A stretch of 33,496 bases of DNA from an uncultured Lachnospiraceae bacterium (GTDB lineage Bacteria; Bacillota; Clostridia; HGM11327), in assembly GCA_964403405.1 (NCBI GenBank), contig CAYOGO010000001.1, forward strand, positions 1 through 33,496. The letters run 5' to 3'. The notes beneath the pieces were generated by a model. That model saw nothing but the letters and a program-made list of their open reading frames with translations, ran no database searches and was not told the DNA's origin. Shown in pieces: positions 4,250 through 30,194 of this stretch (position 1 is the first letter of the stretch; each line of letters opens with the position of its first letter). Made by a program: the position numbers and the translations under genes.

Positions 4250-4621
4250 TCAAGCATTATTAAGAATGTTTTTGAACTTTTCGATGTCTTCCTTTGTGTA
4301 TGTATAAGGGGTACTTATGTTATCGGAGATAAGTCGTCGTTTGCTCATTCTCTCTCCGCTAATAAGATTGTAGGCTCCGCCAATAATGGTGTCGCCTTCG
4401 ATATCGAAAAACACCGTCATATTTTCGATATCTTTATAGCCAGATAGATAATCTCGGTTCAATACATAAAAGAACTTTGATTCATCTTCTTTACTATGCA
4501 CCGAAGATTGTCGGTCATAGTAGACGGTTCCGTCTGGTGCTCGTCTTAAGTAACGAGCAAGTACATCGGGCGAATATTCGATAAGTGCTTGGGTAAATTT
4601 CTTACGCTGAGATATGTTCAT
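4250..4621 (-). CDS. hypothetical protein (123 aa)
   Basis: ORF whose ATG overlaps the integrase stop by 4 nt (coupled). Confidence 0.65.
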   Translation of the reverse strand: MNISQRKKFTQALIEYSPDVLARYLRRAPDGTVYYDRQSSVHSKEDESKFFYVLNRDYLSGYKDIENMTVFFDIEGDTIIGGAYNLISGERMSKRRLISDNISTPYTYTKEDIEKFKNILNNA

Positions 4622-5604: not shown

Positions 5605-5636
5605 TTTTATCACTCCTCTCCTATATTATACTACTT

Positions 5637-8289: not shown

Positions 8290-8303
8290 ATTGATTCCTC
8301 TCC

Positions 8304-10538: not shown

Positions 10539-10733
10539 TTAACATCTCCTTGCCTCGACATCAGTGTCGTAAAATTTAATAGTTATTGTTTTAGTGCCTT
10601 TTGTGAACCTTCTTGAGCGGATTTCCGTTCTTATCATTGTATTACTTACGGTGTTACCATAAGCACCACGATCTGCTACGCAGAATTCCCCAGTGATAAT
10701 ATGTAATGTGGATTTATCTTCACAAAAAGCCAT

Positions 10734-10818
10734 TGGTGTCGCTAACAAGACTCGAACTTGTATGCATTTCTGCTCTGGTTTTTGAGACCAGTGTGTCTGC
10801 CATTTCCACCATAGCGAC
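10734..10818 (-). tRNA. tRNA-Leu (anticodon CAA), class II, CCA encoded
   Basis: Acceptor GTCGCTA/TAGCGAC; anticodon arm CTGGT-CTCAAAA-ACCAG; 13-nt variable arm; T arm ACAAG-TTCGAGT-CTTGT; discriminator A; 85 nt. Confidence 0.9.
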
Positions 10819-10979
10819 GTATTAAGCCATTCTCCAACTCTCCCAACCTTTCAGTTGCACAGGGCGTACTGTGTAGGGCGGCGCTTACCCTGAAGTTTCT
10901 ATCACCGCAGATTGTTGTATCCTCTGCAAGTACCGGCGCTTTTAGAGAATGGCGCGTTGGCTGATACAAACCAACGCAT
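10819..10979 (-). ncRNA. structured ~160-nt spacer between two tRNAs (unknown RNA)
   Basis: No credible ORF. A 9-bp long-range helix GCCATTCTC/GAGAATGGC encloses ~110 nt with internal hairpins, and a 7-bp hairpin GCGTTGG/CCAACGC sits beside it. Confidence 0.3.
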
Positions 10980-11068
10980 TGGCTGGGATGGCTGGATTTG
11001 AACCAGCGAGCAGCGTTGCTGACTTGTCGGAGTCAAAGTCCGATGCCTTACCGCTTGGCGACATCCCA
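10980..11068 (-). tRNA. tRNA-Gln(UUG)-like with an anomalous 19-nt variable arm
   Basis: U1:A72, G73 and the D arm TCGCCAAGCGGTAAGGCA match the E. coli tRNA-Gln. Anticodon arm TCGGA-CTTTGAC-TCCGA; T arm GCTGG-TTCAAAT-CCAGC. The variable region is CAAGTCAGCAACGCTGCTC (hairpin CAGC-AAC-GCTG). 89 nt. Confidence 0.7.
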
Positions 11069-11169
11069 TCGTTGCGCTTATTCTCTTACCCTTTTATATC
11101 GCGCACACCTGCTTATCCACGGCTATTGCCTGATACGAGTTTCTCAAGGGTACAGGTGGTGGTATTTCT

Positions 11170-12006
11170 TTATAAAAATCTTTCGATATAAACTCTATCC
11201 TGTGTAAACACTGGAATTTCTGCGTCAATCACCCATCGAGTTCTTGGATAGAAGCCATCCTTAATGTCTACATCGGGGTCTTGATATTCTTCTTTTACAC
11301 AACACACTCCGCGCTTAAACTCCGTAGGCATATCGTTAAAATTGATTGACTTCTCAGTCATTAACATCTCTTGGATGTCATTGCAGGACTTTCCGTGTAA
11401 TGCTTTGTGTGAGAAATTACACTGTCCGAGCATCTGAATGGCGTTTCGTGTTGCGTCCTGCTGTCTCCAGATAAAACAATTGACTACTTCTTCGACAGGA
11501 ATGTTAAAACATCGAGAGTCGAACATCGCAATTCCAATTTTTGAGAAGTACGAGTCATACAGTGCGTCGAACTCTTCTACGCTAAGTGGTTGCGAGCCAA
11601 TATCGCTTGTGTAGTAATCGTACCTACGATTGACTTCTTCCGCAAAGAACTTGTTAAACGCCATTGTAGCCATACTTGCAGAAACACTGCAAATTTTCTG
11701 AACATTGTTATCGAACCAAGCGTCTGTAGTAAGCGTATCGTAGTCCGTCAGTAGCAAGGTGATTTCGTCGGACTGAGTATATCCGAGCTTAACACACTGA
11801 ATATTCTCGCACAGATACTTCATAGTGTTGTTCATTGCGAAGTGAAAGATTTCGTCATATGGCTTCGCCAATCCTCTTGTAAAGGTGTGAAACGCCTTAC
11901 CATCAAGTCTTATAATCACGGGCATTCGACGCACGAGGTATGTCTTAGCTCGATTCTCATAATTGTTTTTCATACGGTCTCCGAGAGAGTCTTTCTTATT
12001 GCTCAT
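11170..12006 (-). CDS. tRNA-His guanylyltransferase (Thg1)-like 3'-5' polymerase (TLP)
   Basis: GDRMKNNYE...VIIRLDGKAFHTFTRGLAKPYD...GYTQSDEITLL is the Thg1-family signature. Confidence 0.85.
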   Translation of the reverse strand: MSNKKDSLGDRMKNNYENRAKTYLVRRMPVIIRLDGKAFHTFTRGLAKPYDEIFHFAMNNTMKYLCENIQCVKLGYTQSDEITLLLTDYDTLTTDAWFDNNVQKICSVSASMATMAFNKFFAEEVNRRYDYYTSDIGSQPLSVEEFDALYDSYFSKIGIAMFDSRCFNIPVEEVVNCFIWRQQDATRNAIQMLGQCNFSHKALHGKSCNDIQEMLMTEKSINFNDMPTEFKRGVCCVKEEYQDPDVDIKDGFYPRTRWVIDAEIPVFTQDRVYIERFL

Positions 12007-12033
12007 TATGTATTCAGTCCTTTCGTTTATTTA

Positions 12034-12108
12034 TGGTCGGGGCGACAGGAGTCAAACCTGCTTGACCTTGTTCCCAAAACAAGTGGGTAGTCGTTACCCT
12101 ACACCCCG
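12034..12108 (-). tRNA. tRNA-Pro (anticodon UGG), CCA encoded
   Basis: Acceptor CGGGGTG/CGCCCCG; anticodon arm CTTGT-TTTGGGA-ACAAG; T arm GCAGG-TTTGACT-CCTGT; 75 nt. Confidence 0.85.
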
Positions 12109-12170
12109 TTAATTGTTTTGAGCCGACTATTACGGGGCGCCCAGAGGGTGGACACGTTTGAATTCCACAT

Positions 12171-12253
12171 TGGTGCGGATAACAGGAGTTGAACCTGCAC
12201 GGGTAACCACCAGATCCTAAATCTGGCGTGTCTGCCAATTCCACCATATCCGC
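12171..12253 (-). tRNA. tRNA-Leu (anticodon UAG), class II, CCA encoded
   Basis: Acceptor GCGGATA/TATCCGC; anticodon arm CCAGA-TTTAGGA-TCTGG; long variable arm; T arm GCAGG-TTCAACT-CCTGT; 83 nt. Confidence 0.9.
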
Positions 12254-12749
12254 ATATAGAAGATGCATAAGTGACTCCGCTATCCGCCTCGCCCTTTGCC
12301 TTTACGCAAGACTACCATTCAATCACAACTCCATCTACGAGGACGAACCTTTCGTATGGTTTGTCGTGGTCTTTTCAGCTTTAATGATAGCAGGAGTGTT
12401 CGTGTTTCTCATCGTATACTACCAAGGTATTTGTCGTGCGGCTATGGCTTGGCGACTATTTCAGAGCCTACCTTCGGTTGTACATCGCAACCTAACCGCT
12501 ATTTCTTTATAGCCCGACGCTCTCGCGCCACCTTGGATTCCGACCGCCACTCACAGCCGTGATATGTTATCTCAATCGGGCTTTCTTGCAAATAAGAGGG
12601 CTCAAACCTCTGACTTATAGGTTTTACTCGTACAAGGAACTTCCCCTTGGAGTCTTAGCTACTACCCTAATCGTGTTCTCACTACACCATATTTGCGTAT
12701 CGCGGCTACGTGAGGCTTCCGTAGCCGTTTGTTTATTTAGTTACTGTCG
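12254..12749 (-). ncRNA. ~500-nt ORF-free, multi-helix region adjoining the tRNA cluster (candidate large structured RNA)
   Basis: Only short ORFs on the opposite strand. Minus-strand helices include CGGCTACG/CGTAGCCG (12703-12727); GCAAATA...TATTTGC closing a 110-nt tRNA-like unit with the T-arm-like AGAGG-TTTGAGC-CCTCT; AGCCCGA...TCGGGCT closing 72 nt; and GCGGTTA...TAGCCGC closing 62 nt. Confidence 0.35.
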
Positions 12750-12974
12750 TTATTGCCCGTAATAATCCTTCTCATACGACGTCTTCTTGTATACGCCAAA
12801 GAACACGCCAAGTCCTACGCCCACAAGAAGGACGAGGATGCCAAAAATAAATCTACCATTTTGTTTTCTCCTTAAAAAATGTTTAATTTCCGACTGGGAT
12901 AATTGTCGGAGTTTTCGTTGGCAAAAGCCTCCTTTGCCATTGTTGCATTGTATCCCACATAGAATACCCAGCAA
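12750..12974 (-). CDS. possible small membrane protein (start uncertain)
   Basis: The ORF carries a strong TM segment, FIFGILVLLVGVGLGVFFGV. The track's start is a TTG, and the internal AAGGAG is not followed by an in-frame ATG. Confidence 0.3.
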   Translation of the reverse strand: MLGILCGIQCNNGKGGFCQRKLRQLSQSEIKHFLRRKQNGRFIFGILVLLVGVGLGVFFGVYKKTSYEKDYYGQ

Positions 12975-13268
12975 GTTAAGCTTGAGAAATAAACAACTAA
13001 TAAAAACAACCAGCTAAGTTCGGGTCAATCTTAAAGATTTCGATTTATTGAACTTTGGCGAAAGTCCTTATATAGTCTTGCTTTCTTGGACATTCGGTTT
13101 GAGGGCGTTGATAAGTCGAGTCGATTGTGCTGCACACGGGTTTGTTATACAATAGTACCTGCCAGTTACGCGTCCTGCCGGGAATGTTCCCTCTCATCAT
13201 TTTGTTACTTTTGATATCACCAAAAGCGTTACCTTACGATAACAATATCGAATACAATGCTATTGTTT

Positions 13269-18052: not shown

Positions 18053-18430
18053 ACCGATTTCCTTTCTCTGACTATTTACAATCCACGTAGTGTAAAGCTT
18101 GGTCGTAATCCTGAGGATGTCTCGAGAACAAGCTCTGGACAGCGTTAATCATCTGCGAATAGGTGGCTTTCGATTGATGTTTCGTAGAAAAAGTTTAATA
18201 TTTTCTTTGAAAAGATACCAAATTCGTGGAGGATTGGTCTTGACAATCGGACAACTGATTGCGATGACGGCTTCGTGAGCGTTCGTTTCTGGGCAGGCAT
18301 CTCCTTGGATACCGTCCGCCCGCCAGTGGGTTCTTCCGACATTTTGTTACCTTGAATATCATCCAAGGCACCCATCTAATGATGAGCAATAACGATTGTA
18401 AATTAGTTTTTATTTAATCAAACTTGTATT

Positions 18431-18619
18431 TTATTTGCGAGCGTCTGCAATTGACGCAATCATATTGGCGCTGACTATGCCAAAGTTGATTCCAAGCAAC
18501 CAAATATAAAGGTTGTCATTTGTTGCTGTAACGATGTTAAAAATACCAAGGATTGTAAGCAGTATCAGCCAAACGGCATCCAATATTACTCGATTCCATC
18601 TGTTCCAAAACTTTCTCAT
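18431..18619 (-). CDS. small two-TM membrane protein (62 aa)
   Basis: Two hydrophobic segments (ILDAVWLILLTILGIF and LLGINFGIVSANMIASI). The ATG overlaps the DGR RT stop by 4 nt. Confidence 0.55.
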   Translation of the reverse strand: MRKFWNRWNRVILDAVWLILLTILGIFNIVTATNDNLYIWLLGINFGIVSANMIASIADARK

Positions 18620-19659
18620 ATTGCCTCCTGTGCTGTATTATTAAATAGCTGCGATACGAATTCATCCATACTTTCCAATAGTCTGTGACAGTTTCCGTGA
18701 GATGCGTGATTTTTCCAAGGCTCATACTTCTCTGTGAACGATTCCATCGTCATCTTCCCATTGATTACAAGTCTTGCGTACTTTCTCAATCTTTTCTTGA
18801 TTTGTCGTTTGTTTTCGCCAGTTAATCGACGAATGATAACACCGTCTTCGGTAATGTATGTATGAAATCCAAGAAATCTCAACCCTTTGCGTATCGACAC
18901 GATTTCCGTTTTATTGTTCAAAGTCAGGTGTAAAGTATCGAGATATTCTTCAATACGCTTGAGGCAATACTTCAAATATTCTTTGTCTTCGGATATTAGA
19001 TAAAAGTCATCCATATATCTTCCGTAATACTTACACCCGAGCTCTTCGGTAATAAAGATGTCAAGCCCCGCCAGATAAATCAAAGCGAAAACCTGACTGC
19101 ACTGATTACCAAGCGGCAGACCGTTCCCGTCTGTGCTGTCTATAAACAGATCGCACAACCACTGGATCTCCTCGTCCGTGAAATACTGACGAATGATTGC
19201 TTTCATCACATCGTGATCAATGCTATAAAAGAACTTCGTTATATCACACTTGAGAATATATCCATCGCATCCGTGTTCTTGGTAGAACAAACGCATATTC
19301 TCGGAAAGCCGGTCTAACCCAAACAAGGTTCCTTTCCCAATCTGTCCTGCGTAATTGTCTTTAATGAAAACTTCTTTCATTCTCGGCAATAATACGTAGT
19401 CACATAGGCAGTGCTGTAAAACCTTGTCGCGGAAAGAACCTGATTTGATGTTTCGCGGTTTGGGTTCAGTGACAACAAATTCTGCGTAAGGAGATATTTG
19501 GTATGTATGTTCAATCAACTGTCGCCTCATAACGCATATGTTTTCAAGTGCCATAGCGTCAAATTTTATAGCGCCTTTCTTTTTTCCCTTTCCCCTCATA
19601 GACTTCTTGTATGACTTATACAAGTTGCCGAAATCTGTTACAATCTGAAAATCTCCCAT
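18616..19659 (-). CDS. diversity-generating retroelement (DGR) reverse transcriptase
   Basis: RT motifs include the DGR-specific LPLGNQCSQ ([I/L]GxxxSQ) and YMDDF. The gene lies immediately downstream of the TR. Confidence 0.92.
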   Translation of the reverse strand: MGDFQIVTDFGNLYKSYKKSMRGKGKKKGAIKFDAMALENICVMRRQLIEHTYQISPYAEFVVTEPKPRNIKSGSFRDKVLQHCLCDYVLLPRMKEVFIKDNYAGQIGKGTLFGLDRLSENMRLFYQEHGCDGYILKCDITKFFYSIDHDVMKAIIRQYFTDEEIQWLCDLFIDSTDGNGLPLGNQCSQVFALIYLAGLDIFITEELGCKYYGRYMDDFYLISEDKEYLKYCLKRIEEYLDTLHLTLNNKTEIVSIRKGLRFLGFHTYITEDGVIIRRLTGENKRQIKKRLRKYARLVINGKMTMESFTEKYEPWKNHASHGNCHRLLESMDEFVSQLFNNTAQEAI

Positions 19660-19773
19660 AATATTCCTTTGTATTTATCCCACATCCTGTGAGAAAGGTT
19701 ATATGCTCTTTTGATAGTGTGGAGCACTCCTTGTAGCCACCGAAGTGACTTATAGACCTCACTTATCCACCAG

Positions 19774-19856
19774 AACGGGCGAACGCCGCCGTTGTCATTG
19801 TCGCAGTCGTTCCAGTTCAGAACGCCATTCGAGTTGACGTAGCAAACGTTACGAGC
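19774..19856 (-). repeat. DGR template repeat (TR), 83 nt
   Basis: Aligns over 83 nt with 20282-20364 (9 differences) and 29482-29564 (10 differences). Every difference is at a plus-strand T of the TR, which is A on the transcribed minus strand. Confidence 0.92.
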
Positions 19857-19881
19857 ATCAGCATATAGCCTAAAACATCAA

Positions 19882-20244: not shown

Positions 20245-20250
20245 AGTGTG

Positions 20251-20853
20251 TTAAATCAAGAGAGAAGATTTCAAGATACAAAACGGGCGAACGCCGCCGC
20301 TGCCAATGTCGCAGGCGTTCCAGTCCAGAACGCCATTCGAGCGGACGCAGCAAACGTCACGAGCGTATCCCTCTACATCTGCACTTACTCTTGTCGCCGT
20401 ATGCCACCAACTTCCGTATGCGGGCAAGAATTTTCTGTACGCTCTGTATCTTTCTGTCGTCAGAATAGACACATAGTCTTCACAAACCTTTACTCCCGTT
20501 CCGTCATCAGCCGTCAGGTCTGTCTGATGCTTCACGATATTTTCCTTACCTACAGCACCTGCGATTTCCTTATAGAAATCGTTATTCAAGTAGGCGCGGA
20601 TATCGCTGTTGAGATAATCGCCCGTCTTTCCGAACGCCATCTTCTTAACGAAATCCTTGGCGATAACCGCCGTAACACCATTCAGATGCTGAAGAACAAT
20701 GTATTCTCTTTTGCCGAGCTTAATAATCGCTCCGGGCTCGTGCTCTCCAAGAGCTTTACATCCCTCGGGAGACAATGTAATAATAACAGTACCGTCATTC
20801 TCGCTCGTTGTTACCCTTACGTTGGGTGCGTTGTTTACAATTTCAACTCTCAT
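20251..20853 (-). CDS. DGR target protein 1 (C-type-lectin-fold variable C-terminus)
   Basis: ATG at 20853 after AGGAGAAAATCA. The C-terminus ...WWHTATRVS...NGVLDWNACDIGSGGVRPFCIL contains VR1. Confidence 0.85.
   Translation of the reverse strand: MRVEIVNNAPNVRVTTSENDGTVIITLSPEGCKALGEHEPGAIIKLGKREYIVLQHLNGVTAVIAKDFVKKMAFGKTGDYLNSDIRAYLNNDFYKEIAGAVGKENIVKHQTDLTADDGTGVKVCEDYVSILTTERYRAYRKFLPAYGSWWHTATRVSADVEGYARDVCCVRSNGVLDWNACDIGSGGVRPFCILKSSLLI
20282..20364 (-). repeat. DGR variable repeat VR1
   Basis: 83-nt match to the TR with 9 A-site substitutions. It ends 31 nt before the stop codon. A GC-rich IMH-like GGCGGCGTTCGCCCG lies at its 3' end. Confidence 0.9.
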
Positions 20854-20881
20854 TGATTTTCTCCTGTTATGTAAAAGATTT

Positions 20882-21418
20882 TTAAGAAACACGGAGTACA
20901 CCTCCGTTCACTTCCGTATATCCATCTTCGCTTAGTAACTCCCCAAGCTTTTCGTAGTCTATACATTCAAGAAGCGTTTCCTTGCTGAACATTCCATCGT
21001 CTGCGAATTGCTCAGCAAGTTCGGTCAAAGTAGTTCTTGGATAGAAATCGACATCTCTGTCCTCGACCTTGTCGATTGCATCTTCCAACGAATATCCTTC
21101 GCTATCTATTAACGCTACCATCGCGTCATATTCATAGTCCTGTAAGTCCTCAATGCGTTCAACCAAGTCGCTCGCACTGTATGGATTCTCACAATCGGAC
21201 TGAGTTAAAATCTCGGAACTAAAGTCCAAAACCTCATATGTGTCTGACGGACTATCTCCAGCCATCAAACTGTCAAAGTCGTACTCTGCGTCTGGATCAA
21301 TTCCCATTTCTTCTAACATCTCGTTGAATTCGTTTTCCGTAAACGGTAAATCAATCCACCTCGGTGCGACCTGACGATTACTGCTTCCTATGAGCAGTTT
21401 GGAATAAGTATTTATCAT
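20882..21418 (-). CDS. ardA: ArdA-like antirestriction (DNA-mimic) protein
   Basis: APRWIDLPFTENEFNEMLEEMGID...EY and the C-terminal CIDYEKLGELLSEDGYTEVNGGVLRV parallel Tn916 ArdA (GAWFTFPIDFEEVKEKIGL...; NYIDYQAYGRDL...HGIFEIV). Highly acidic. ATG at 21418 after GAGAGGTG. Confidence 0.6.
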   Translation of the reverse strand: MINTYSKLLIGSSNRQVAPRWIDLPFTENEFNEMLEEMGIDPDAEYDFDSLMAGDSPSDTYEVLDFSSEILTQSDCENPYSASDLVERIEDLQDYEYDAMVALIDSEGYSLEDAIDKVEDRDVDFYPRTTLTELAEQFADDGMFSKETLLECIDYEKLGELLSEDGYTEVNGGVLRVS

Positions 21419-21420
21419 AT

Positions 21421-21951
21421 TCACCTCTCGTCTTCCGCCCATTCAACTATCAGCTCTTCCAAAAAAGCCACATCTTCTTGTGGAATTGGTCGCGCCAACC
21501 ATTGTGTGCCGTATATAAATCCTCTATCGTCTTCCAGACCGATTTCTTTAAGGTACGCCCTTGCGGCAGAGTAATCATATTTATTTTGTTTCTTCCATTC
21601 TTTCAGAGCCAACTCTTGGACTTGTGTTCCAGCAGTTAAATCGTTAAGATGGTACGCTCTCCATATTCTAACGAGTCTATCGAAAGATGCAAGTTCAAGT
21701 TCTGGTACTCTTTCTCGATACATCTCGACTATTCGCTCTATGCACTGATCGCCGTATCTGCCTTTTCGTGGTGAAGCACATATACTAAGAACTGGTATAT
21801 TGTCTGCCTGCAAAGTGTCATACCGAATCACATTCTTTTCTGTCAAGCTTATTTCAAATTGCAAACATCTTGTGCTCTTTCTGAAGTATTTGCCGAGCTT
21901 CGCAAACTTTCCGCACGGCATTAACCGTAGATATATCGTATGTTCCTTCAT
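21421..21951 (-). CDS. hypothetical protein (176 aa)
   Basis: ATG at 21951 lies 5 nt after GGAGG. Confidence 0.65.
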   Translation of the reverse strand: MKEHTIYLRLMPCGKFAKLGKYFRKSTRCLQFEISLTEKNVIRYDTLQADNIPVLSICASPRKGRYGDQCIERIVEMYRERVPELELASFDRLVRIWRAYHLNDLTAGTQVQELALKEWKKQNKYDYSAARAYLKEIGLEDDRGFIYGTQWLARPIPQEDVAFLEELIVEWAEDER

Positions 21952-21962: not shown

Positions 21963-22772
21963 TTACACAGAAGTTATTCCAATTACATCTTCCCAGCTAA
22001 GACCATTGTCTTCCACATCTGGTTCTTCTGTACATACTGGCATATCTTCTGCTTCGTCGTCTGGGTCGTCCTCCCACTCGTCTTCCTCGAAGTCGTCTTC
22101 TGTATATCCCCATATGTCCATTGCTAACGCACGGTCGTCCTCTACATCGAGCTCGCTTCCATATCCTTCGCTATACCACATCTGCCCGCAATTGTTTCCG
22201 ATATCTTCATCAGCCCAACGGTGAGTGAAGTCAAGGTCTGGATATTTTTCAGCCAGAGCCTCAATAATCGGGAATGGCGCAGACCAAGCGGTCTGAAACA
22301 CCAACATTCCTTCATCGAGACTCCATTCAGCGTTACAAGCATTCCACTTTGTGCCCCAGTTACGACGACACCAGTCAAACCAAGTGTAACAACCGTAATG
22401 TTCTCGATTGTACATATACTGCTTACCGTCTTCGTAAAGTTTGTCCCATACTTCGGGAGACGTCTCTGTGGAATTCTTGAGCCGCGAAACGACTTCGTTA
22501 GCCCAGTCGTTGTTAAAACAATTGGAGATCAACCCAGAAAGGTTTGTTTGCTCGACGGGAATTGTCAACCGTTCCGTAACATAATAAGCAATCGCTCTGT
22601 CTGTATTTGAGCCCGACTCAATATTCAGAGACTCAGGCATAGGAATGAGCTTGTTGAAGTCAAATGCTCGTTCTTCGTTTTCTGTCGATAGCTTTAACTC
22701 GCGGACTAACGCCGCAACTTTTTCGTCACCGATATTTTCAAAAATAATTTCGTTTTGTACCCAGTTTGGCAT
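21963..22772 (-). CDS. DUF1281/Api92-like protein with acidic tail
   Basis: MPNWVQNEI...RNWGTKWNA...FQTAWSAPFP pattern, remembered from plasmid and phage ferredoxin-like DUF1281 proteins. The C-terminal 60 aa are extremely D/E-rich. Confidence 0.55.
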   Translation of the reverse strand: MPNWVQNEIIFENIGDEKVAALVRELKLSTENEERAFDFNKLIPMPESLNIESGSNTDRAIAYYVTERLTIPVEQTNLSGLISNCFNNDWANEVVSRLKNSTETSPEVWDKLYEDGKQYMYNREHYGCYTWFDWCRRNWGTKWNACNAEWSLDEGMLVFQTAWSAPFPIIEALAEKYPDLDFTHRWADEDIGNNCGQMWYSEGYGSELDVEDDRALAMDIWGYTEDDFEEDEWEDDPDDEAEDMPVCTEEPDVEDNGLSWEDVIGITSV

Positions 22773-22974: not shown

Positions 22975-23314
22975 AAATTCTCCTTTCACTATTTGCTTGT
23001 TATTGATTCCTTACAATCCAACGCGGTTGAAGCTCATCAGAAAGATTTCTTCTGAAGAAGTATTTCAGCTCAATTTTGATGTCTTTGAAAGTATCGAGTT
23101 CGTTTGTTTTCAAGGTTTTCCTTTGAAAACAACAGCAATAACATTGGGATTTTCGGTAGTTTCTGCACTTGCGAGCAGTTTCCTGTGGCAAACGGTTCGC
23201 CAGCAATGTGCTGCGCCAACGTCTTCCTTCGGAAGCCGGCTCTCCATCGTCTCGCTTCTTCGGACATTGTGTCACGTTTGATATCATCAAACGCATCATC
23301 AAACAAAGTTAATG

Positions 23315-23344
23315 ATAATAGCGATTGTAAGCTGTATCCGTCAA
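23315..23344 (-). promoter_or_regulatory. candidate sigma-A-type promoter (TTGACG-18-TATTAT)
   Basis: Minus-strand cTTGACGgatacagcttacaatcgcTATTATc at the head of leader B. Confidence 0.4.
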
Positions 23345-23400
23345 GATACTCAAAAATTCTTGGTGGCTTGTAAGCTTGAAAGAATTTTTCTTGAAAATTC

Positions 23401-23456
23401 CTCCTCTGTCGTAGAACAAATCTGCGCCTTGCGCAGATTTGTTCTTCGTCTGAGGA
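23401..23456. other. perfect 14-bp inverted repeat inside an extended CTCCTC/GAGGAG stem
   Basis: GAACAAATCTGCGC-ctt-GCGCAGATTTGTTC (23414-23444), flanked by ctcctc...gaggag. No U-tract on either strand. Confidence 0.6.
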
Positions 23457-23569
23457 GCGAATTTTTAGTAATCATCGTTGTATTGCATTCGGTATGACCA
23501 GATGCTCTATCAAATAAGGGGAATATGTATGTGATAGAAAGACCTATCCAGACGGATAATTATGTTTAA

Positions 23570-24712
23570 TTACGGATTAAGCAAAGCCTTCGCCGTAGCT
23601 AAAACATCTTTATTGAATTTTGTGGAGTACGCATTGAGAATTTTGTCAATCTCCTCGCCCTCTACCATCTTGTAGTAGGCAACGAGACCAAGGAAATGCT
23701 GTACGTCCTCGAGTTCCCAAGCAACGCCTTTCGCATCGTCAGTCATAAACTGGAAGATCATTGCTTTGAAGACCTTTTTCTTTTCGTGACCGATTGTAAT
23801 CTTGTTCTCTTTGTTGAGCATAACTCCCAAATTCCAGTTTCTTCCCGCCGAAGAACCATATCTGGTCTTCTCTGCGTTAAGCGTAAACGGAGCTGAGAAC
23901 TGATTGAAAATGTCGGTTATCTTGTTCTGCACGGCCGTCCAATGGAAACTGAACTGGCTGGAAATCAACATATCGTCAGCGTATCTTGTATAACAAAGAT
24001 GCGGACTGTATTCACGACACATCTTTGCAATCGCGTGATCGATGGGAATCATCATCATATTCGTCAGCATTGGACTGGTGGGCGTTCCCTGCGGCAAACC
24101 GCCATTCAGGAAACAAAGAGATAATGCTTTTTGAAGCACCTCTCTGTATCCGTAATCATAATTTACGAACACACAAAACGGATAAAGCTCGCAGAGCATA
24201 TCCATCAAAAACTTCTCTGTAGTGGACGGAAAGAAACCCTGTGCATCGAGTTTTAAGAACCAACGGGAGTTGTTTGTCTGGTGACGCTTTACGCTGTCAA
24301 TCGTGCTTCTACCGTGAACATACGCAAAAGCGGTAGTATGATAGGATGCGAAAAATTTCTTTTCGAGAATTTCTTTCAGCTCTCTCAAAGCCTTCATCAG
24401 CTCGTCTTGGGGAGCATCTATCTTACGCAAACCGCCACTTCTTTTAGGAATTTTGAAACTTCTATAAAGCACAGACTTATCTTCCGTATTGATAAGACCT
24501 GCGTACTTTTCGTTAAAAGCCACGAGAGCTTCATACATACCACGGAAGTTTGTCTTTTCGATCAAATTGGGGTTAATGTTGTTTGTGAGCCACGTCCTTG
24601 TGTCTCTGGTGTCTTTCGCCGGCATAAAATCCGACTCACTACATCCGTTCAGGATATCGTCAAACGTGAGCTGATACGTTCTCGGTTCGACATTTACGGT
24701 AATATACGGCAT
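23570..24712 (-). CDS. retron-type reverse transcriptase (380 aa)
   Basis: Block-by-block similarity to the Ec86 RT: FKIPKRSGGLRKIDAP, KLDAQGFFPS, GLPQGTPTSPMLTN, YTRYADDMLIS and LGVMLNKENKITIGHEKKKVFKAMI (the VTG-region equivalent). ATG at 24712 after AAAGGAAC. Confidence 0.85.
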   Translation of the reverse strand: MPYITVNVEPRTYQLTFDDILNGCSESDFMPAKDTRDTRTWLTNNINPNLIEKTNFRGMYEALVAFNEKYAGLINTEDKSVLYRSFKIPKRSGGLRKIDAPQDELMKALRELKEILEKKFFASYHTTAFAYVHGRSTIDSVKRHQTNNSRWFLKLDAQGFFPSTTEKFLMDMLCELYPFCVFVNYDYGYREVLQKALSLCFLNGGLPQGTPTSPMLTNMMMIPIDHAIAKMCREYSPHLCYTRYADDMLISSQFSFHWTAVQNKITDIFNQFSAPFTLNAEKTRYGSSAGRNWNLGVMLNKENKITIGHEKKKVFKAMIFQFMTDDAKGVAWELEDVQHFLGLVAYYKMVEGEEIDKILNAYSTKFNKDVLATAKALLNP

Positions 24713-24725
24713 ATTGTTCCTTTCT

Positions 24726-25054
24726 TTCTGTAATCGCGAGGTACAGATGACTGTCTGAAGACTCACCGCGGTCGGCGATGCATCTTCTGCGTCGTCATCG
24801 CAAGGTTAACAGGCGGTAGTCGGGTGGGCAAAGCTGTAAGGAAAACGGGTGTGATTTGGTAATGACGGGTTGGTTTCAAGTAAATTTAATATTAACTTGA
24901 CACTTATCCGCACGAAATGGCTCCGAGCACCTCGTTACTCCTGATGGAGGCGTCACGCCTTCTGTCCCACTGGGGCTGCCATCTCTTGACATTTTGGTAC
25001 TTTCGGTAAAACCCAAAGCCTTGTGTCCGAAGAAACAAGAATAACATTACAGAA
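24726..25054 (-). ncRNA. candidate RT-associated ncRNA (retron msr-msd-like)
   Basis: 329-nt region free of ORFs >=60 aa between rnhA and the RT. It is bounded by the 9-nt inverted repeat TTCTGTAAT (25054-25046) / ATTACAGAA (24734-24726), with a G right after the 5' arm. A UUCG-capped hairpin lies at ~25020-25040, and there are several GC hairpins. Confidence 0.4.
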
Positions 25055-25059
25055 TTGTT

Positions 25060-25500
25060 TTATTTTTGATTGTTGGTGTAAGCCTCTACGGCAAGTTGGT
25101 CACAGCGCTCGTTTTCTGGGTGACCATTATGTCCTTTGATCCAAACAAATTTGACTTTGTGAACCTTGAGTAGCGATAAGAGTTCTTCCCATAAGTCTGA
25201 GTTCTGGGCAGGCTTACGGTTAGACTTTCTCCAACCATTTGCCTTCCAGCTTTCAGCCCAACCTTTCTCAATGCCGTTTACAACGTACTGAGAATCGGTT
25301 GTCAAAACAACCTCGCACGGCTCTCTTAATGCATACAGTGCTTGAATAGCAGCCGTCAACTCCATTCGGTTGTTCGTCGTGTCTGGGTTAAACCCCGATA
25401 ATTCTTTGATCGCGGAGCCGTACCTTAATACGGCTCCCCAACCACCACTTCCGGGATTGCCAGAGCACGCCCCGTCTGTGAATATTTCGACACGCTTCAT
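25060..25500 (-). CDS. rnhA: ribonuclease HI
   Basis: [25 protein letters not shown]...TTNNRMEL...TDSQYV...[16 protein letters not shown] is near-collinear with E. coli RNase HI, with the DEDD residues present. ATG at 25500 after GAGGAA. Confidence 0.95.
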
Positions 25501-25519
25501 ATATGTTTTCCTCAACGAA

Positions 25520-26206
25520 TTACATCGTCATAATATCCATAGCGAACGGATTGCAGACAACGATCTTCTGCAATTCGCCGCCACGAATGAGGTTCATAAA
25601 GTTTGTAACGCCGAGAGCACAAATTACCCTAACTGTAGGGGCGACACCGAGCTCTGTGCCGCAGGCTGTTACAGGAGTAGCCTCGTGTGCTTCGTCGTGA
25701 GAGAAAGCCATCGACTTGATAAGATTGTCCACCTGACGCATATCGCCCCAGTCTGCGGCGTAATGCTGTGCATCTTCAAGACGCGTTCTGAAATCAAACA
25801 CGGCTTTGATTGCCTTGTTCATACGATTCTTCTCGCAGATTTCACGTCTCAAGTCGATATTATCAACGGCAAGGAACACGTAACCGTTGAGCTTCTGATC
25901 TGTGTATCCCTGCCCGAACACCTCTATGGTGCTTTCCGCTTCGGGGTTGATATCACAGATGATTTTCTTAACTGCTTCAACCTTAGGTTTCTTGACGTCG
26001 CTCTGTACGAACATCTGATTTGCAAGGTTGTGCGGCTCGACAATGTCGAAATCATAAAGAACGAATTTCGTCACGCCGAGTCTTGCGAGATTTTCTGCGA
26101 CAGTAGATCCCACGCTGCCACAACCGATGATGTGGCACTTGCCACGTACGTTGACCGGATCAAAGTATTCGATAGACTTTGTTAAATCCATTAGTGCCAC
26201 CCCCAT
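25520..26206 (-). CDS. minimal ThiF/MoeB-type E1-like adenylyltransferase (~223-228 aa)
   Basis: [38 protein letters not shown] is a Rossmann/ATP loop of the E1 superfamily. The start is at 26206 or the TAATG-coupled 26191. Confidence 0.8.
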
Positions 26207-27102
26207 TCTCTCGAGTAGAACGGATCACTCGGGTCTTCGTCAACCCCATAGTAATCATCGTCGTCATCTCTTACGTTTGTGCTTTTTGTGTCGTTTTTTT
26301 TACTGTATCCAGTTCCTGCGGCGGACGGAGTTTTAGCCGTCGGCTTCTGAGAACCACCATACGAGTTTCCGCCGTATGAACTTCCGTTGTACGAACCTCC
26401 ATATCCATTGTAGGAACTGCCGTAACTCTTACCGCCGTAAGACGAAACAGTCTGCACAGCAACTTTCTTTGCCTCCAAAACGAAATTGTCAACGGTATCG
26501 CCGTCGTCGAGCATCACCATCATATCAATTTCCTTGGCAGTCGTCGAATACATAGCGTTGTACGTTAAATCGTAGATTTCTGCGCTCCAATCGTGACTTT
26601 TGTTGATGATGAGGAAGATGTAGAATGTATCGTTATTGGCATCGGGTTTAGGAAGCTGGGTGATAACGTCCTTGCGATAATCGGTATCGGTTACGGACGG
26701 AGATACCGGCATATTGACGTGAGAATGTCCGTGGAAACGGAGCGCGTTAAATTTTTCGTCGTCAAGACCGTTAATCCAGTTGGAATATTTCTCCTGATCG
26801 GATGTAACGGTTGCGGCGGTTACAGTGTGAGGAGGAACAAGAATATCGTAAATCTCAAACTCACACTCGGAGAGACGTCTGACTAAGCCGTGCCACTGAA
26901 CCTCCGTAGAAAATTCAGAGACGAGAGCCGTCATCTTAATCCACGCCATAGGCGTGAAGTAAAGCAACGCACATCTGTCGTCGCTCTTAAAATTCTGTCG
27001 GATGTCAATGCTACCATAGCACTTCGAGTTGAGAATCTGCGCTCTCAAGGCTTCGATAATGCGTGTAGCCTCATCCTGCGGTACATAAATTGGCTTAGCC
27101 AT
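26191..27102 (-). CDS. JAB/MPN (JAMM) metallopeptidase with S/Y/G-rich low-complexity tail
   Basis: JAMM motif H126-S-H128-x7-S136-x2-D139 (nt 26686-26727). C-terminal SSYGGKSYGSSYNGYGGSYNGSSYGGNSYGG is followed by an acidic DDDDDYYGVDED stretch. Confidence 0.8.
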   Translation of the reverse strand: MAKPIYVPQDEATRIIEALRAQILNSKCYGSIDIRQNFKSDDRCALLYFTPMAWIKMTALVSEFSTEVQWHGLVRRLSECEFEIYDILVPPHTVTAATVTSDQEKYSNWINGLDDEKFNALRFHGHSHVNMPVSPSVTDTDYRKDVITQLPKPDANNDTFYIFLIINKSHDWSAEIYDLTYNAMYSTTAKEIDMMVMLDDGDTVDNFVLEAKKVAVQTVSSYGGKSYGSSYNGYGGSYNGSSYGGNSYGGSQKPTAKTPSAAGTGYSKKNDTKSTNVRDDDDDYYGVDEDPSDPFYSREWGWH

Positions 27103-28468
27103 TCTGCTGTTCTCCTTCGTTTAAGATTTTGAGAAATTCATTCACCGATACCATCTTGCCGTCGGTGAGTTTGATGCAACGCACACTTCTGTGGCGGTCG
27201 AGCCAGTTAATCATATTGCCGACAACGGTCGAGTCGCCAAAGTTCAAGTTCTTTGTCGCACCAATAGCCTGTTCAATGGCGAGTTGCCACTCTCCGCTAT
27301 CGGCATACTTGGAATAATACTGGTCGTTTCCTCCCGAACATCTGTAAAAATAAATGTGCGGGTGAGGAAGCAAATCTTCGCGGCTAAGTTCTTTATGCAT
27401 ACTGATGTATCTCATACTACCCAGAGAGAATACTGCGTTTACAACGAACACACCCTTGTGTTCTGCAAAAATTGCATTCATAACTCTCGGAATTTCGTCG
27501 GACGATGCCTCAGTATGAATATAAGATCTCTTTTTCTTGTAGATGGAAATAAACTCATCCTCATCGTAAAACTCAAGAGTCTCCGTGATTCCAAACTTGA
27601 TTGTGTCGCCATCCGTGTAAACGATATCCAGACACTTGTGACTGCTGAAAAAGTCAAACAACTCCGTAGTTGCCTCCTCGGGAGCTTCTTCAAGCGCCTT
27701 GAGCAATCTCTGGTTGTCGGACAATTGTCTGTAAAGCTTTTCCATCTCAAGCTGGTATCGTTGAATCGAGTTGATATTGTTATTGACGGCGCTTCTATAC
27801 GACGACAACTGCGTTTCCCTGATGGATTTCTCAAATCCATCGAGGTACTTGTGCAAGGACATATCTCTGAAGTCGAGCTTCTCTGCTGCACGGTTTATGT
27901 AGTCAACAAGGATGTTTTCTGCTTCAGCTTCACTCACATCCTTGTTGTTTACAGAGATAGCCTTGAAAAATGCCTGCTCTTCAGCAGAGAGTTCAGAGGT
28001 GAAATACCACCGAAACACTCTGGCAAAGGTCGAGATAAATCCTTGTATCCACTTAGCCGTAGCCTGTCTATCAACAGCGACTACAACTCTCTGCTTGTCC
28101 ACATTTACGAACACTCTGGTCTTCGCAAACTGGCTCAAGTATCTGCTGATAGGGTATGGAGGTTTATCAAGAGACTCCCAACCATCGTGTGTCAGCTCGC
28201 TCGGGAAATACCCATTTCTTGTTTCGCAGATGATAACCGCATACCCGTCTGCGTCAAACGCGGCTCTGATGTCTCGCTCATTGCTGATTCTATGCATCAA
28301 GACGGTCGATCCCTTGACAATGCTGTCAAGAGTCCATTCGGTACGCTCGATGATAATGGCTCTTAAAAACGCCACCAACGAGTAGTCGCCATTTACGGAA
28401 TTTGCTCCGCCAAGGATATTATCGGCTTCGCGACCTACCAGCCTCATCCTTTCTTTGGAAATTTGCAA
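27095..28468 (-). CDS. 457-aa protein with candidate C-terminal E2 (UBC)-like domain
   Basis: TTG start 7 nt after AAAGGGGTG. The C-terminal LPHPHIYFYRCSGG...EWQLAIEQAIG resembles the HPN...C flap plus following helix of E2 enzymes. The N-terminal ~290 aa are unrecognised, with a coiled-coil at 200-265. Confidence 0.4.
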   Translation of the reverse strand: MQISKERMRLVGREADNILGGANSVNGDYSLVAFLRAIIIERTEWTLDSIVKGSTVLMHRISNERDIRAAFDADGYAVIICETRNGYFPSELTHDGWESLDKPPYPISRYLSQFAKTRVFVNVDKQRVVVAVDRQATAKWIQGFISTFARVFRWYFTSELSAEEQAFFKAISVNNKDVSEAEAENILVDYINRAAEKLDFRDMSLHKYLDGFEKSIRETQLSSYRSAVNNNINSIQRYQLEMEKLYRQLSDNQRLLKALEEAPEEATTELFDFFSSHKCLDIVYTDGDTIKFGITETLEFYDEDEFISIYKKKRSYIHTEASSDEIPRVMNAIFAEHKGVFVVNAVFSLGSMRYISMHKELSREDLLPHPHIYFYRCSGGNDQYYSKYADSGEWQLAIEQAIGATKNLNFGDSTVVGNMINWLDRHRSVRCIKLTDGKMVSVNEFLKILNEGEQQNG

Positions 28469-28497
28469 GGTATTTCACCCCTTTCTGTCTTACCTAA

Positions 28498-28740
28498 TTA
28501 GAGCGCGAGTGCGCCATCTGCCTTGACAATGGCGTTAAGGTTCGCAGTGGAACCATCGGCAACTCTGAGCTCCTCAAAGGTCTTGCCGAAGTCTGCTGCG
28601 GAGAGGATTGCACCGTCGAGATTGACCATCGAAGTAGAAGTATCAACGCCAAGCTCGGCGAAAACCTCACGGGGAGTGGAGGTTACATCTGCGGAAACGG
28701 TGCGGCGGGTAGTGTTAGTTCTTACATTGATCGAAATCAT
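28498..28740 (-). CDS. ThiS/MoaD-like ubiquitin-like beta-grasp protein (80 aa)
   Basis: ATG at 28740 lies 10 nt after AAGGAG. VNLDGAIL...LRVADGSTANLNAIVKADG-ALAL parallels the ThiS pattern vNg..v...l.dGD.v.i...v.GG. Gly76 is followed by a 4-aa tail. Confidence 0.55.
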   Translation of the reverse strand: MISINVRTNTTRRTVSADVTSTPREVFAELGVDTSTSMVNLDGAILSAADFGKTFEELRVADGSTANLNAIVKADGALAL

Positions 28741-28826
28741 AATTACTTTTCTCCTTGAAATCAAATGTTTTTTGTTTTGTTTTTTTTGGTGTTCGTAACC
28801 CTGTTATCGCCTCAGGGGTGCCTTAA

Positions 28827-29225
28827 TTAGGCGTTGGTGATACCACCAATGAGAGCTGCTCTCTCGGTCTTGATGGTCGCAACCACTTCGGGAAGCGATG
28901 CCTCAAGAGCGTTAACGTGAGCAAGAGCTGCGCCGACAACATCGGCTACGTACTCACCAGCGTTGGGAGTACCCTCGGGAAGCTTCTCGGGAATATCGCC
29001 GGTAACGATTGCGTAACCGTCAGCGTTGACTGCGCCGAAGGTAGCGCCGTTCTTGGAGATGCAGGACTTGCCAGCAACATAGGACATACCGAAGATGTCG
29101 TTGCCATCGCTGTCCTTGATCTTCAGAGCATCGGGACGATACCTCTTGACAAGCTCAAGGTCTTCCTTCTTGATGGTGGAGGTGAGAACGTACTTTGCTA
29201 CGTCTCTGTGAAGAGTGATTTTCAT
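28827..29225 (-). CDS. hypothetical protein (132 aa) with ...LIGG-ITNA C-terminus
   Basis: ORF whose third codon positions look visibly G/C-rich compared with its neighbours. AAAGGGAAAACCT precedes the ATG. Confidence 0.7.
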   Translation of the reverse strand: MKITLHRDVAKYVLTSTIKKEDLELVKRYRPDALKIKDSDGNDIFGMSYVAGKSCISKNGATFGAVNADGYAIVTGDIPEKLPEGTPNAGEYVADVVGAALAHVNALEASLPEVVATIKTERAALIGGITNA

Positions 29226-29441: not shown

Positions 29442-30194
29442 TCAACTGTGAGCAGTCAAGACACAAGATTTCAAGATACAAAACGGGCGAACGCCGCCGC
29501 CGTCACAGTCGCAGCCGTTCCAGTCCAGAACGCCAAGCGAGCCGACGTAGCAAACGTTACGAGCGTATCCGCTTTCTTCGATAGCGCTCTTTCGTGTGGC
29601 AGTCCACCACCATCCGTCTGAACGAATGTGTTTGCTGTACTTTCGATAACTGTCAACCGTCATCAGAGAGATATAGTCTTCGACAAATCCGTAATCAGCT
29701 CTGCCGTCCTCTGGCGTTGTGTCAACGCGATGCTTGATGATATTCTCTGCTCCAACAACCGCAGCAAGCTCGTTGTAATATTCTTCGTTTAGATATCGAC
29801 GAACCCTGCTCGTTTCGTAATCTGCTTCGTCTCCGAAAGCCATAAAGTTTACAAAATCATAGTGTAGCAAAAGCACGTTCTCTCCGATGTAATCAAGCAC
29901 GATATACTTCCATCTGCCAAGTCTAACTTGACTGCCAACGGTAGGCAAACCATCTGCCGTACCAGATACGTTATACGAATTCATATCAATGATTTTTTGT
30001 GCAGGAACTTCTGCGGGAATAAAGTTCTGGTAGATACACCCTGTACTCTCTCCGGGCATACCTGCAAACAACGGACACCCTGCACAGCCCGTAGTTCTTC
30101 CCCAACAAAACTCTTGGATGCTATTTATCGCATCCGCTACATTTTGCGGCAACCCGATTGCCTCGGGTGTAATAGTGGTTTCTCTTTCTGACAT
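29442..30194 (-). CDS. DGR target protein 2 (remote target, 250 aa)
   Basis: The C-terminus ...WWWTATRKS...LGVLDWNGCDCDGGGVRPFCIL is paralogous to target 1 and carries VR2. GAAGGGAG SD. Confidence 0.85.
   Translation of the reverse strand: MSERETTITPEAIGLPQNVADAINSIQEFCWGRTTGCAGCPLFAGMPGESTGCIYQNFIPAEVPAQKIIDMNSYNVSGTADGLPTVGSQVRLGRWKYIVLDYIGENVLLLHYDFVNFMAFGDEADYETSRVRRYLNEEYYNELAAVVGAENIIKHRVDTTPEDGRADYGFVEDYISLMTVDSYRKYSKHIRSDGWWWTATRKSAIEESGYARNVCYVGSLGVLDWNGCDCDGGGVRPFCILKSCVLTAHS
29482..29564 (-). repeat. DGR variable repeat VR2
   Basis: 83-nt match to the TR with 10 substitutions, all at TR adenines (minus strand). It shares the same IMH-like 3' end and downstream TTTTGTATCTTGAAATCTT as VR1. 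Confidence 0.9.

Follow-up and report, generated by a model that had tools for sequence, protein, structure and literature searches.

Retrons are tripartite systems composed of a reverse transcriptase (RT), an msr/msd non-coding RNA (ncRNA) and an effector, and they have been classified into types I to XIII (Mestre et al., 2020; PMC7736814). The main text of this classification never mentions ThiF, ubiquitin or JAB. Operons of ThiF, JAB and small ubiquitin-like (Ubl) proteins of unknown role have been described on mobile elements (Iyer et al., 2006; PMC1779556, rows 6a–6e), in a survey that never mentions an RT or a retron. Here we describe a locus in which the two are found side by side. It lies on the minus strand, from position 29225 down to 23570, of a 33.5-kb stretch of contig CAYOGO010000001.1 (the window, by which we mean the whole stretch analysed). 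The locus has seven core parts: a 132-aa protein (p132), a Ubl, a 457-aa Cys protein, a JAMM (JAB) peptidase, a ThiF-type E1, a retron-type ncRNA and a retron-type RT. Our preferred reading, to which we give a probability of roughly 0.55, is that these parts form one functional, co-inherited and largely co-transcribed phage module. All enzymes of the module keep their catalytic residues. A first-pass annotation of the window, made from the DNA letters alone, was aware of no described association between an RT and a Ubl conjugation system. We found no paper joining a retron or RT with a Ubl/E1/JAB system in the searchable literature, outside which most subscription journals lie, and the novelty is provisional to that extent. 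Every gene of the window is on the minus strand. Its five tRNA genes and numerous PHROG matches assign the window to phage DNA.

The linkage of the two halves was examined from both sides. Scans of IMG/VR with single proteins returned almost nothing, and alignment-based scans were needed. The sample from the 457-aa side was built from 70 close relatives and their alignment, and comprised 31 loci from viral contigs, metagenomes and metagenome-assembled genomes (MAGs). All of these loci with enough downstream DNA show the order p132, Ubl, 457-aa protein, JAB, E1, about 300 nt free of open reading frames (ORFs), and RT. From the RT side, two alignment-based IMG/VR scans gave 159 more loci; after merging and dereplication the set holds 143 distinct RT genes. 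The genes for the 457-aa protein, JAB and E1 are found upstream on the strand of the RT in 134 of the 143. The other nine RT genes are too near a contig end to judge, and the cassette is lacking in none. The first-pass annotation had suggested one linked RT and Ubl module of new architecture and had named co-localisation of the homologues as a check. With the cassette present in 134/134 informative RT loci, the comparative evidence for that suggestion is about as strong as sequence data permit. RT identity in this set falls to approximately 31–36%, the contigs are approximately 45–300 kb long and their flanks differ; the MAG bins are labelled Clostridia, Christensenellaceae, Eubacteriales and Bacteroidales. 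When all flanking ORFs were clustered, only the core families were universal and the commonest neighbour family occurred in 43/134 loci. As no flanking family exceeds this number, mosaic exchange appears to have reshuffled everything but this block. Pairwise-identity matrices of the RT and of the cassette proteins are correlated (r = 0.81–0.96, Mantel p = 0.001); for E1, the 457-aa protein, JAB and p132 r is 0.92–0.96. This fits co-inheritance as one unit without proving it. Insertions into the block (DUF6273 genes, tRNAs, RNase H) never put the halves on opposite strands or far apart, except for one 5.8-kb insertion. A megablast search of the block against GenBank phages gave no match, and tblastn detected the whole module in one unverified gut-phage scaffold only (MT835544.1).

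The gene order and strand given by the first-pass annotation hold, and the coordinates below were read from the sequence. The p132 gene (28827–29225) comes first. It is followed by the Ubl gene (28498–28740), which encodes 80 aa when counted from an ATG behind a good ribosome-binding site; an 88-aa ORF from a TTG start was rejected. The 457-aa protein (27095–28468) starts with TTG 29 nt after the Ubl stop codon, overlaps the JAB gene (26191–27102, 303 aa) by 8 nt, and the latter overlaps the E1 gene (25520–26206, 228 aa) by 16 nt. The rnhA gene (25060–25500), coding for RNase HI, has its ATG 19 nt after the E1 stop. The four spacings are exactly those noted before. An ORF-free stretch (24713–25059) separates rnhA from the RT gene (23570–24712, 380 aa), whose product begins at MPYIT; an upstream GTG was rejected as its start.

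Co-transcription had also been proposed, and it is supported for at least part of the block. The first arm of the RNA (a1, see below) lies at most 16 nt past the upstream stop codon in 16/21 loci. Since a1 abuts this stop codon and leaves no space for a separate promoter, E1 or rnhA, the RNA and the RT are probably co-transcribed at least. The related claim that a terminator appears only after the RT stands in part. The hairpin behind the RT (23394–23465, minus strand) is real and strong (−41.6 kcal/mol, z = −10.1), but its U-tract is poor (TTTT, three bases past the stem). It is possibly a terminator or a processing site. The window contains 8 terminator-like sites against 7.7 expected in shuffled sequences, hence no excess, and the three minus-strand matches inside the block are weak stems of 5–6 bp in coding sequence.

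The RNase HI gene was counted as a part of the module by the first-pass annotation, and we dropped it from the core. RNase HI is found in 15/134 loci, in five of them upstream of the RNA and in ten downstream of the RT, and because of this low number and its position on either side of the RT it was classed as an optional accessory. The identification itself is firm (Pfam RNase_H, 4e-47; NCBIfam ribonuclease HI, 2e-66), and it is the sole NCBIfam match in the block above the cut-off. RNase HI has plausibly been recruited for maturation of multicopy single-stranded DNA (msDNA) in hosts without RNase HI. Other genes also enter the block. In about 29 loci in all, among them L039–L060 (our locus numbers), a DUF6273-like gene of 265–275 aa is inserted between E1 and the RNA unit and widens the gap from E1 to the RT-linked RNA to about 1.2 kb. 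It belongs to the family of the targets of the diversity-generating retroelement (DGR) in the window. A tRNA gene, mostly tRNA-Leu(UAA), is located between the Ubl and 457-aa genes in many relatives, among them loci L036, L039, L050, L061, L065, L080, L090 and L100. Processing of such an embedded tRNA by RNase P/Z would cut the operon transcript in two. Suppressor-type tRNAs (anticodons CTA and TCA) were noticed in loci L061 and L087, which is a hint of stop-codon recoding in those phages.

The label 'ncRNA' given earlier to the ORF-free stretch is backed by covariation, and from its sequence and predicted folding the stretch is a retron-type ncRNA. This RNA, unit A, is msr/msd-like and occupies 24726–25054 (329 nt, minus strand). 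It begins with the a1 arm at 25046–25054 (TTCTGTAAT, an arm of 7–9 bp), followed by a candidate branch G at 25045, the hairpins SL1 and SL2, a variable body and the a2 arm at 24726–24734 (ATTACAGAA). The a2 arm is located about 320 nt past a1, just before the ribosome-binding site of the RT, and has a G immediately 5' of it. Across 20 non-identical relatives 138 of 140 cells of the a1/a2 stem pair, and each position shows three to four kinds of pair; in shuffled sequences 93.5 cells pair on average and 114 at most. Compensatory changes were found at 8/9 pairs of SL2. The unconstrained minimum free energy (MFE) fold of unit A recovers a1/a2, SL1 and SL2. A stem score of at least 7 was reached by 89% of 101 loci and by 32% for the control. 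The G after a1 is present in 21/21 sequences, and the G 5' of a2 in 92/107 RT-linked units compared to 11/40 controls. The two positions agree with what Mestre et al. (2020; PMC7736814) describe for the retron consensus, 'two opposing G residues'. Every informative RT has an RNA unit immediately upstream. Rfam contains no family that matches the RNA at gathering or lax thresholds, and the body of the RNA has no match of at least 13 nt in the rest of the window.

The RT is best described as retron-type. It matches Pfam RVT_1 (7.5e-18), its top 25 PADLOC matches are all retron RT types (the best being RT_II-A, 9e-52), and among NCBIfam models retron St85 (7e-56) scores ahead of group II intron RT (3.5e-22) and Drt2 (1e-10). 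YADD and the other catalytic residues are invariant in 91/91 sequences. A clade-specific N-terminal extension of about 95 aa is present. We call it a divergent new clade of retron-type RTs because the best matches are retron RTs, yet the canonical motifs are absent, the St85 score is below the cut-off and the N-terminus is extended. With that cut-off caveat, these profile matches would place it in the retron RT clade. At the position that we take to correspond to VTG, presumably aligned with Ec86, the window RT has N-L-G, of which G296 is invariant.

The RNA unit is not unique to the RT gene. A covariance model (CM) was built on the 5' 70 nt of the unit, and it scored 55.8 bits on unit A. Scanned over the window, it found three further intergenic units on the minus strand, which makes four units for one retron-type RT. 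Unit B (23010–23331; 37.5 bits, E = 1e-6) is located directly downstream of the RT and precedes a gene for 63 aa. Its a1 is CTTACAATC, followed by G, and its a2 is GATTGTAAG; in its MFE fold a1 and a2 close the unit, and SL1 and SL2 form (z = −3.6). Units C and D are found approximately 5 and 10 kb beyond unit B. Unit C (18075–18402; 36.9 bits) is a dispersed copy with a1 TTTACAATC, then G, and a2 GATTGTAAA. Unit D (12947–13258; 46 bits, E = 1e-8) lies upstream of a tRNA cluster and has a1 ATTGTATTC, then G, and a2 GGATACAAT. The MFE folds of both close a1/a2. The units of the window are 312–329 nt long, and each has its own covarying a1/a2, branch G, opposing G, SL1 and SL2. The three additional units have no RT of their own. 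The four share only the 5' 80 nt, and their bodies are unrelated in sequence. A weak, partial fifth match was seen at 10629–10664. The interval 12260–12850 (minus strand), about 600 nt between unit D and a tRNA-Leu gene, contains several GC-rich hairpins with no convincing ORF and no Rfam match.

The same arrangement is common among the relatives. When 10 kb on either side were fetched, paralogous 5' motifs were found in 63/107 loci, and all 226 motif matches are on the gene strand. A unit follows right after the RT stop codon in 50/107 loci, often as two in tandem. An a1/a2 score of at least 7 was obtained for 80/118 orphan copies and for 40/214 random controls; a G 5' of a2 is present in 73 of these 80 orphan units and in 11/40 controls. 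The SL2 stem and loop are common to all units of one genome and differ between genomes, with the caveat that orphan copies were found by similarity to the unit of their own genome. This pattern points to one trans-acting reader, most likely the RT, for several templates, and judged from these RNA sequences it is the simplest reading. We also considered the units as miniature inverted-repeat transposable elements (MITEs) and rejected this idea: their terminal repeats covary rather than being conserved, and their interiors are unrelated. Other ways to find the units were less useful. A purely structural descriptor (a1/a2, G and two hairpins) was too permissive, with 18 and 12 matches on the two strands of the window, and a strict regular expression and an exact IUPAC unit pattern were too narrow. 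The latter had one match in 2.9 million viral contigs, on an RT-bearing contig.

Compared to described retrons, the module shares RT matches, a structured RNA upstream on the same strand, the a1/a2 arms, the opposing Gs, the 5' hairpins and accessory genes in the operon. It differs in being phage-encoded, whereas retrons are found in bacterial defence islands, and in having a five-protein Ubl pathway as its accessory part, placed upstream. Its RT lacks NAXXH and VTG and has a 95-aa N-terminal extension, and its units (approximately 290–330 nt) are multi-copy per genome. Its RNA architecture would thus put the module among the retrons, while the RT motifs and the number of RNAs per RT (one in retrons; four units in the window) would not.

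In the Ubl half, E1 is a minimal ThiF-type protein (Pfam ThiF, 3e-23) that matches PADLOC E1-E2 models down to 2e-18. Residues G28-x-G30-x-x-G33, R42, D52, D115, R120 and Cys182 are invariant in 78/78 sequences, and from these residues an adenylation domain and a catalytic Cys are predicted. The name JAB, given from the letters alone, is justified by a perfect JAMM motif, E67...H126-S-H128-x7-S136-x2-D139, which is invariant in 91/91 sequences. Profile matches are weaker: Pfam Prok-JAB matches 8/26 members weakly, and the PADLOC JAB match is at approximately 1e-3. The C-terminal third of the JAB reading frame (26191–26500) codes for a Gly/Tyr/Ser-rich low-complexity stretch and then an acidic, aromatic tail, whose composition is kept across relatives and whose sequence is not.

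The Ubl itself has no match in Pfam, PHROG, PADLOC or NCBIfam. Its profile gave weak PDB matches (E = 0.03–1), mostly to ubiquilin, SAMP2, DSK2 and ubiquitin domains over the full length, and HHalign against ubiquitin gave E = 0.0017 at a probability of 15% over 63 columns. The protein therefore looks weakly beta-grasp-like at the sequence level. The window Ubl ends in ...VKADGA followed by an LAL tail, and the C-terminal motif K-x-x-[G/N/S]-[A/G] is conserved in the family with 0–4 variable residues after it; it stands in place of the C-terminal Gly-Gly of Ubls. In about ten loci the Ubl is fused to the N-terminus of p132, and the junction falls precisely at the motif (...VVKADNA|AVIKIVG...). 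This position argues for processing of a precursor at the motif, as in ubiquitin-ribosomal fusions and BubAB. The fusions also suggest a functional tie between p132 and the Ubl, whose substrate, adaptor or cargo it could be. We count p132 among the core parts; nearly every informative locus has it. Its AF2 model (pLDDT 94.6) is a 7-stranded sheet with a 39-aa C-terminal helix; Foldseek against PDB gave no match at E ≤ 0.001, and no Pfam, PHROG, PADLOC or NCBIfam family matches the sequence. We consider p132 a candidate partner or substrate of the Ubl.

The 457-aa protein had been labelled E2-like, and no sequence or fold comparison backs this label. HHalign of the family against UbcH5B returned nothing, and for this reason the 'E2' name was dropped. 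The Pfam E2 and Prok-E2 families match none of 68 members, a PDB profile search gave coiled-coil noise only, and there is no match in Pfam, PHROG, PADLOC or NCBIfam. The AF2 model is confident (pLDDT 93.4). It has no Foldseek match in PDB at E ≤ 0.001, with no UBC structure among the hits, and its only match in BFVD is one uncharacterised metagenomic phage protein. The family counts 2092 representatives at 50% clustering, with no annotation. Only His371, Cys377 and Gly379 are invariant, in 93/93 sequences (H371-x5-C377-x-G379). The invariant His-Cys-Gly, the place of the gene between Ubl and JAB and the start/stop overlaps hint at a carrier, and the protein is a candidate thioester carrier or ligase on the basis of these features. 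It is the weak point in reading the genes as a cascade.

Several bacterial and phage Ubl systems can be compared with this half. The Bil (bacterial ISG15-like) operons are reportedly antiviral, as is said to have been described by Hor and colleagues in 2024. Like Bil and related antiviral operons (Chambers et al., PMC10557695), the module has a Ubl, an E1, a Cys-dependent carrier and a JAB in one operon, and a role in virus-host conflict is expected. It differs from Bil by a carrier without a recognisable UBC fold, a minimal 228-aa ThiF domain as E1, a Ubl that ends in Asn-Ala or Gly-Ala, and by being phage-encoded and coupled to an RT. The PADLOC Bil models found no match in the module, and no PADLOC model matches the Ubl or the 457-aa protein. 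With CBASS Cap2/Cap3 (PMC10097602) it shares a JAB partner and an E1 that matches the E1 part of the Cap2-type models of PADLOC and NCBIfam (to 2e-18); unlike in CBASS, the E1 is not fused to an E2, and the Ubl is separate, with no CD-NTase tail, cyclase or effector. In the Bub system (Ye et al., PMC11601596) the Ubl is made as a fusion precursor, BubAB, that is cut by the peptidase of the pathway. The Ubl-p132 fusions parallel this precursor, and both systems appear to have diverged, non-canonical chemistry. Bub works through oxyester (Ser) intermediates and employs a serine protease, in contrast to the invariant Cys182 and Cys377 and the JAMM peptidase of the module, and no homology between the two was detected. 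No curated Bil, CBASS type II or Bub model found all its components here; PADLOC recognised only E1 (as 'E1-E2') and, weakly, JAB.

The mobile-element operons of Iyer et al. (2006) and the PRTRC cassette resemble the module as ThiF, JAB and small Ubl operons. The NCBIfam PRTRC ThiF model matches E1 weakly (6.5e-6, far below the cut-off), and no other PRTRC component matches the module. ThiF and 'metalloprotease' pairs are also found in crAss-like (phiCrAss001-type), Flavobacterium FpV4-type and Xanthomonas jumbo phages, with distant homology to E1 (26–31%) and, in FpV4, a weak JAB match. In these pairs the RT, ncRNA, p132, Ubl and 457-aa protein were not detected. The distant E1 lies beside large hypothetical or 'metalloprotease' proteins in replication modules with no RT in three cultured or reference phages, Flavobacterium phage FpV4, Xanthomonas phage PhiXhv-15 and the crAss-like cr126_1, and the gene pair may be related to that of the module. 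The absence of an RT there suggests that RT coupling is a derived feature of this clade. Taken by sequence features, the E1 and the JAMM peptidase would make the module a Ubl cascade; the UBC-fold E2 and the Gly-Gly end of such cascades are missing. We provisionally take the whole for a new type of retron whose accessory pathway has no precedent, and there is a fair chance that it will prove categorically new once its chemistry is known.

A working scheme can be proposed for the module. The RT would bind the conserved 5' hairpins of the ncRNA, start cDNA synthesis at the 2'-OH of the G that follows a1, and copy the variable body into an msDNA-like single-stranded DNA (ssDNA), as expected from the families of its parts. 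RNase H, from the phage or the host, would trim the template. The extra units of the same genome share the hairpin identity and would probably be read by the same RT. On the protein side, the JAMM peptidase would cut the Ubl precursor at K-A-D-[G/N]-[A/G], which would remove the tail of 0–4 residues or free p132 from the fusions. E1 would adenylate the Ubl and accept it on Cys182. The 457-aa protein would then take the Ubl on Cys377 and hand it to a target; the likeliest target or adaptor would be p132. Tripartite retrons use their RT-msDNA complex to gate the effector. By analogy, we guess that the RT-msDNA complex here gates or directs conjugation, or is gated by it. A further guess is that the output is used in conflicts of the phage with its host or with other phages, and not in core replication. 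This guess fits the neighbourhood in the window (ArdA, tRNA repair and NAD-salvage-like genes, a DGR) and the faster evolution of the 457-aa protein, p132 and JAB relative to E1 and RT: mean pairwise identity is 31–54% for the 457-aa protein, Ubl and p132 compared to 60% for E1. A more specific version of the scheme is that one RT copies dispersed and tandem units with a conserved handle and different 200–240-nt templates, and that the complexes are coupled to non-canonical Ubl tagging (Asn-Ala end, orphan-fold carrier, p132 as substrate or adaptor) in such a way that synthesis controls conjugation or is controlled by it. We put this version forward only tentatively, and find it clearly less probable than the linked module as such.

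A number of observations weigh against a single module as described. The 457-aa protein has neither a UBC fold nor similarity to E2 profiles, and the HPN...Cys feature of UBC-fold E2s is absent. The Ubls end in NA (54), GA (5), SA (4) or GG (4), mostly as ...ADNA and not in Gly-Gly. The St85 score of the RT is 189.5, under the NCBIfam cut-off of 235, and the canonical retron RT motifs are literally present in 2/92 (NAXXH) and 1/92 (VTG) RTs of the clade. The RNA units are multi-copy, and some precede unrelated genes, tRNAs or another unit, which points to a possible RT-independent role. The distant E1-plus-JAB pairs without an RT suggest that the Ubl half can work alone. All loci were found through similarity to module proteins, so that diverged members that have lost one half could have escaped. 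Which half would govern the other, and to what biological end, is guesswork, and the module is known as sequence, with msDNA, transcript and conjugate all predicted.

The rival explanations take up several of these points. The two halves could be independent modules that stand side by side through inheritance in one lineage, with no functional coupling. The Mantel correlation is expected for any two vertically co-inherited genes, the RT-less phage pairs are consistent with separate halves, and accessory genes often cluster in islands, as the context of the window shows. We regard this explanation as unlikely, since the co-occurrence is complete (134/134) over RT identities down to approximately 31–36%, over contigs of 45–300 kb and between unrelated flanks of which no family exceeds 43/134 loci; the RNA begins a few bases past the E1 stop codon; and insertions, bar the one of 5.8 kb, have never moved the halves to different strands or far from each other. 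Another explanation concerns the RNA only. The approximately 320-nt units may be general phage RNA elements (leaders, processing or stability modules, regulatory RNAs), with the template of the RT located elsewhere. Four units for one retron-type RT, their positions before unrelated genes, tRNAs and each other, and the lack of canonical NAXXH and VTG in the RT speak for it, as does the resemblance of a1 to −10 promoter hexamers, with promoter-like matches overlapping a1 of unit B. A promoter in a1 would, however, drop a1 from the RNA, yet a1 covaries with a2. General elements would also not explain why a unit lies directly upstream of every informative RT and another directly downstream in half, why the a1/a2 stem carries the branch G and opposing G that are a specific retron signature, why 226/226 motif matches are on the gene strand with SL2 identity following the genome, or why the sole match of the exact pattern in 2.9 million viral contigs is on an RT-bearing contig. 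This explanation is doubtful in our view.

About equally doubtful, and still a serious rival because the block is found among replication genes in other lineages, is a device for replication or recombination, in which ssDNA made by the RT from several units serves to prime or seed the synthesis or recombination of phage DNA, RNase H takes part in the processing, and the Ubl pathway regulates replication proteins, as the crAss-like ThiF/metalloprotease genes may do. In locus L001 and approximately 25 others the block is surrounded by genes for single-stranded-DNA-binding (SSB)-like, SNF2 helicase, Sak4-like ATPase and primase-helicase proteins. The distant E1-plus-JAB pairs adjoin primase, uracil-DNA glycosylase (UDG) and exonuclease genes, RNase HI was recruited repeatedly, and the units are scattered over one strand of the genome. 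The neighbours in the window are anti-defence-like and not replication genes, however, and no replication family is conserved beside the block. To our knowledge, all known retrons and bacterial Ubl conjugation systems act in immunity, and the faster evolution of the 457-aa protein, Ubl and p132 than of E1 suits a conflict interface better than housekeeping. The least probable idea, that Ubl and E1 are a sulfur-carrier pair of the ThiS/MoaD-ThiF type that thiolates tRNA or cDNA, was dropped. It came from the best named matches of E1 (ThiF, MoeB), a tRNA-Glu(UUC) gene directly upstream of p132 in the window and the tRNA genes embedded in the modules of relatives. But the embedded tRNAs are mostly Leu(UAA) and of varying identity, which is not the s2U set; the block has no conserved rhodanese, cysteine desulfurase or PP-loop thiolase; and most Ubls end in Asn-Ala, not in the Gly-Gly of sulfur carriers. 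The JAMM peptidase, the invariant-Cys partner, the precursor tails and the Ubl-p132 fusions point to protein conjugation instead.

If the linked module is real, it joins retrons and bacterial Ubl systems, both very active topics in prokaryotic immunity, in one invariant block of at least 134 distinct phage loci, in a large family of uncultured gut and rumen phages. It touches on what retron cDNA can signal to and on what the E1 and JAB genes of phages are for. New biochemistry would be expected from a Ubl with an Asn-Ala end, an orphan-fold carrier, a precursor in which Ubl and substrate are fused and possibly one RT with several templates; such multi-template RTs would be of interest for retron-based genome editing. 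With so few and such compact parts, heterologous reconstitution should be feasible.

The surrounding region of the window looks like an accessory, anti-defence-like island. A complete DGR is encoded on the minus strand. It consists of a second RT (18616–19659, 347 aa; phrog_1423, 6e-110), a template repeat (19739–19862) and variable repeats at 20247–20370 and 29447–29570, located at the 3' ends of two DUF6273 genes (20251–20901 and 29442–30194). The differences between the repeats fall at template adenines, and the second of the two target genes is found a short way upstream of the module. A cluster at 6970–12253 encodes a 744-aa Pnkp-like kinase-phosphatase-RNA ligase (phrog_8238, 4e-223), a Thg1-like tRNA-His guanylyltransferase, four tRNA genes, and PRPP-synthetase-like and isochorismatase/nicotinamidase-like proteins, possibly for NAD salvage. 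This cluster looks like anti-defence or tRNA repair. Downstream of unit B are found an ArdA-type antirestriction protein (20882–21442; Pfam 1e-7) and a DUF1281_C/Api92-like protein (21963–22772). An integrase-like gene is present at 4618–5613 on the minus strand (phrog_216, 2e-27), and the relatives L015, L028 and L030 reside on MAG contigs of 200–300 kb; from both observations, some members of the family may be temperate or integrated.

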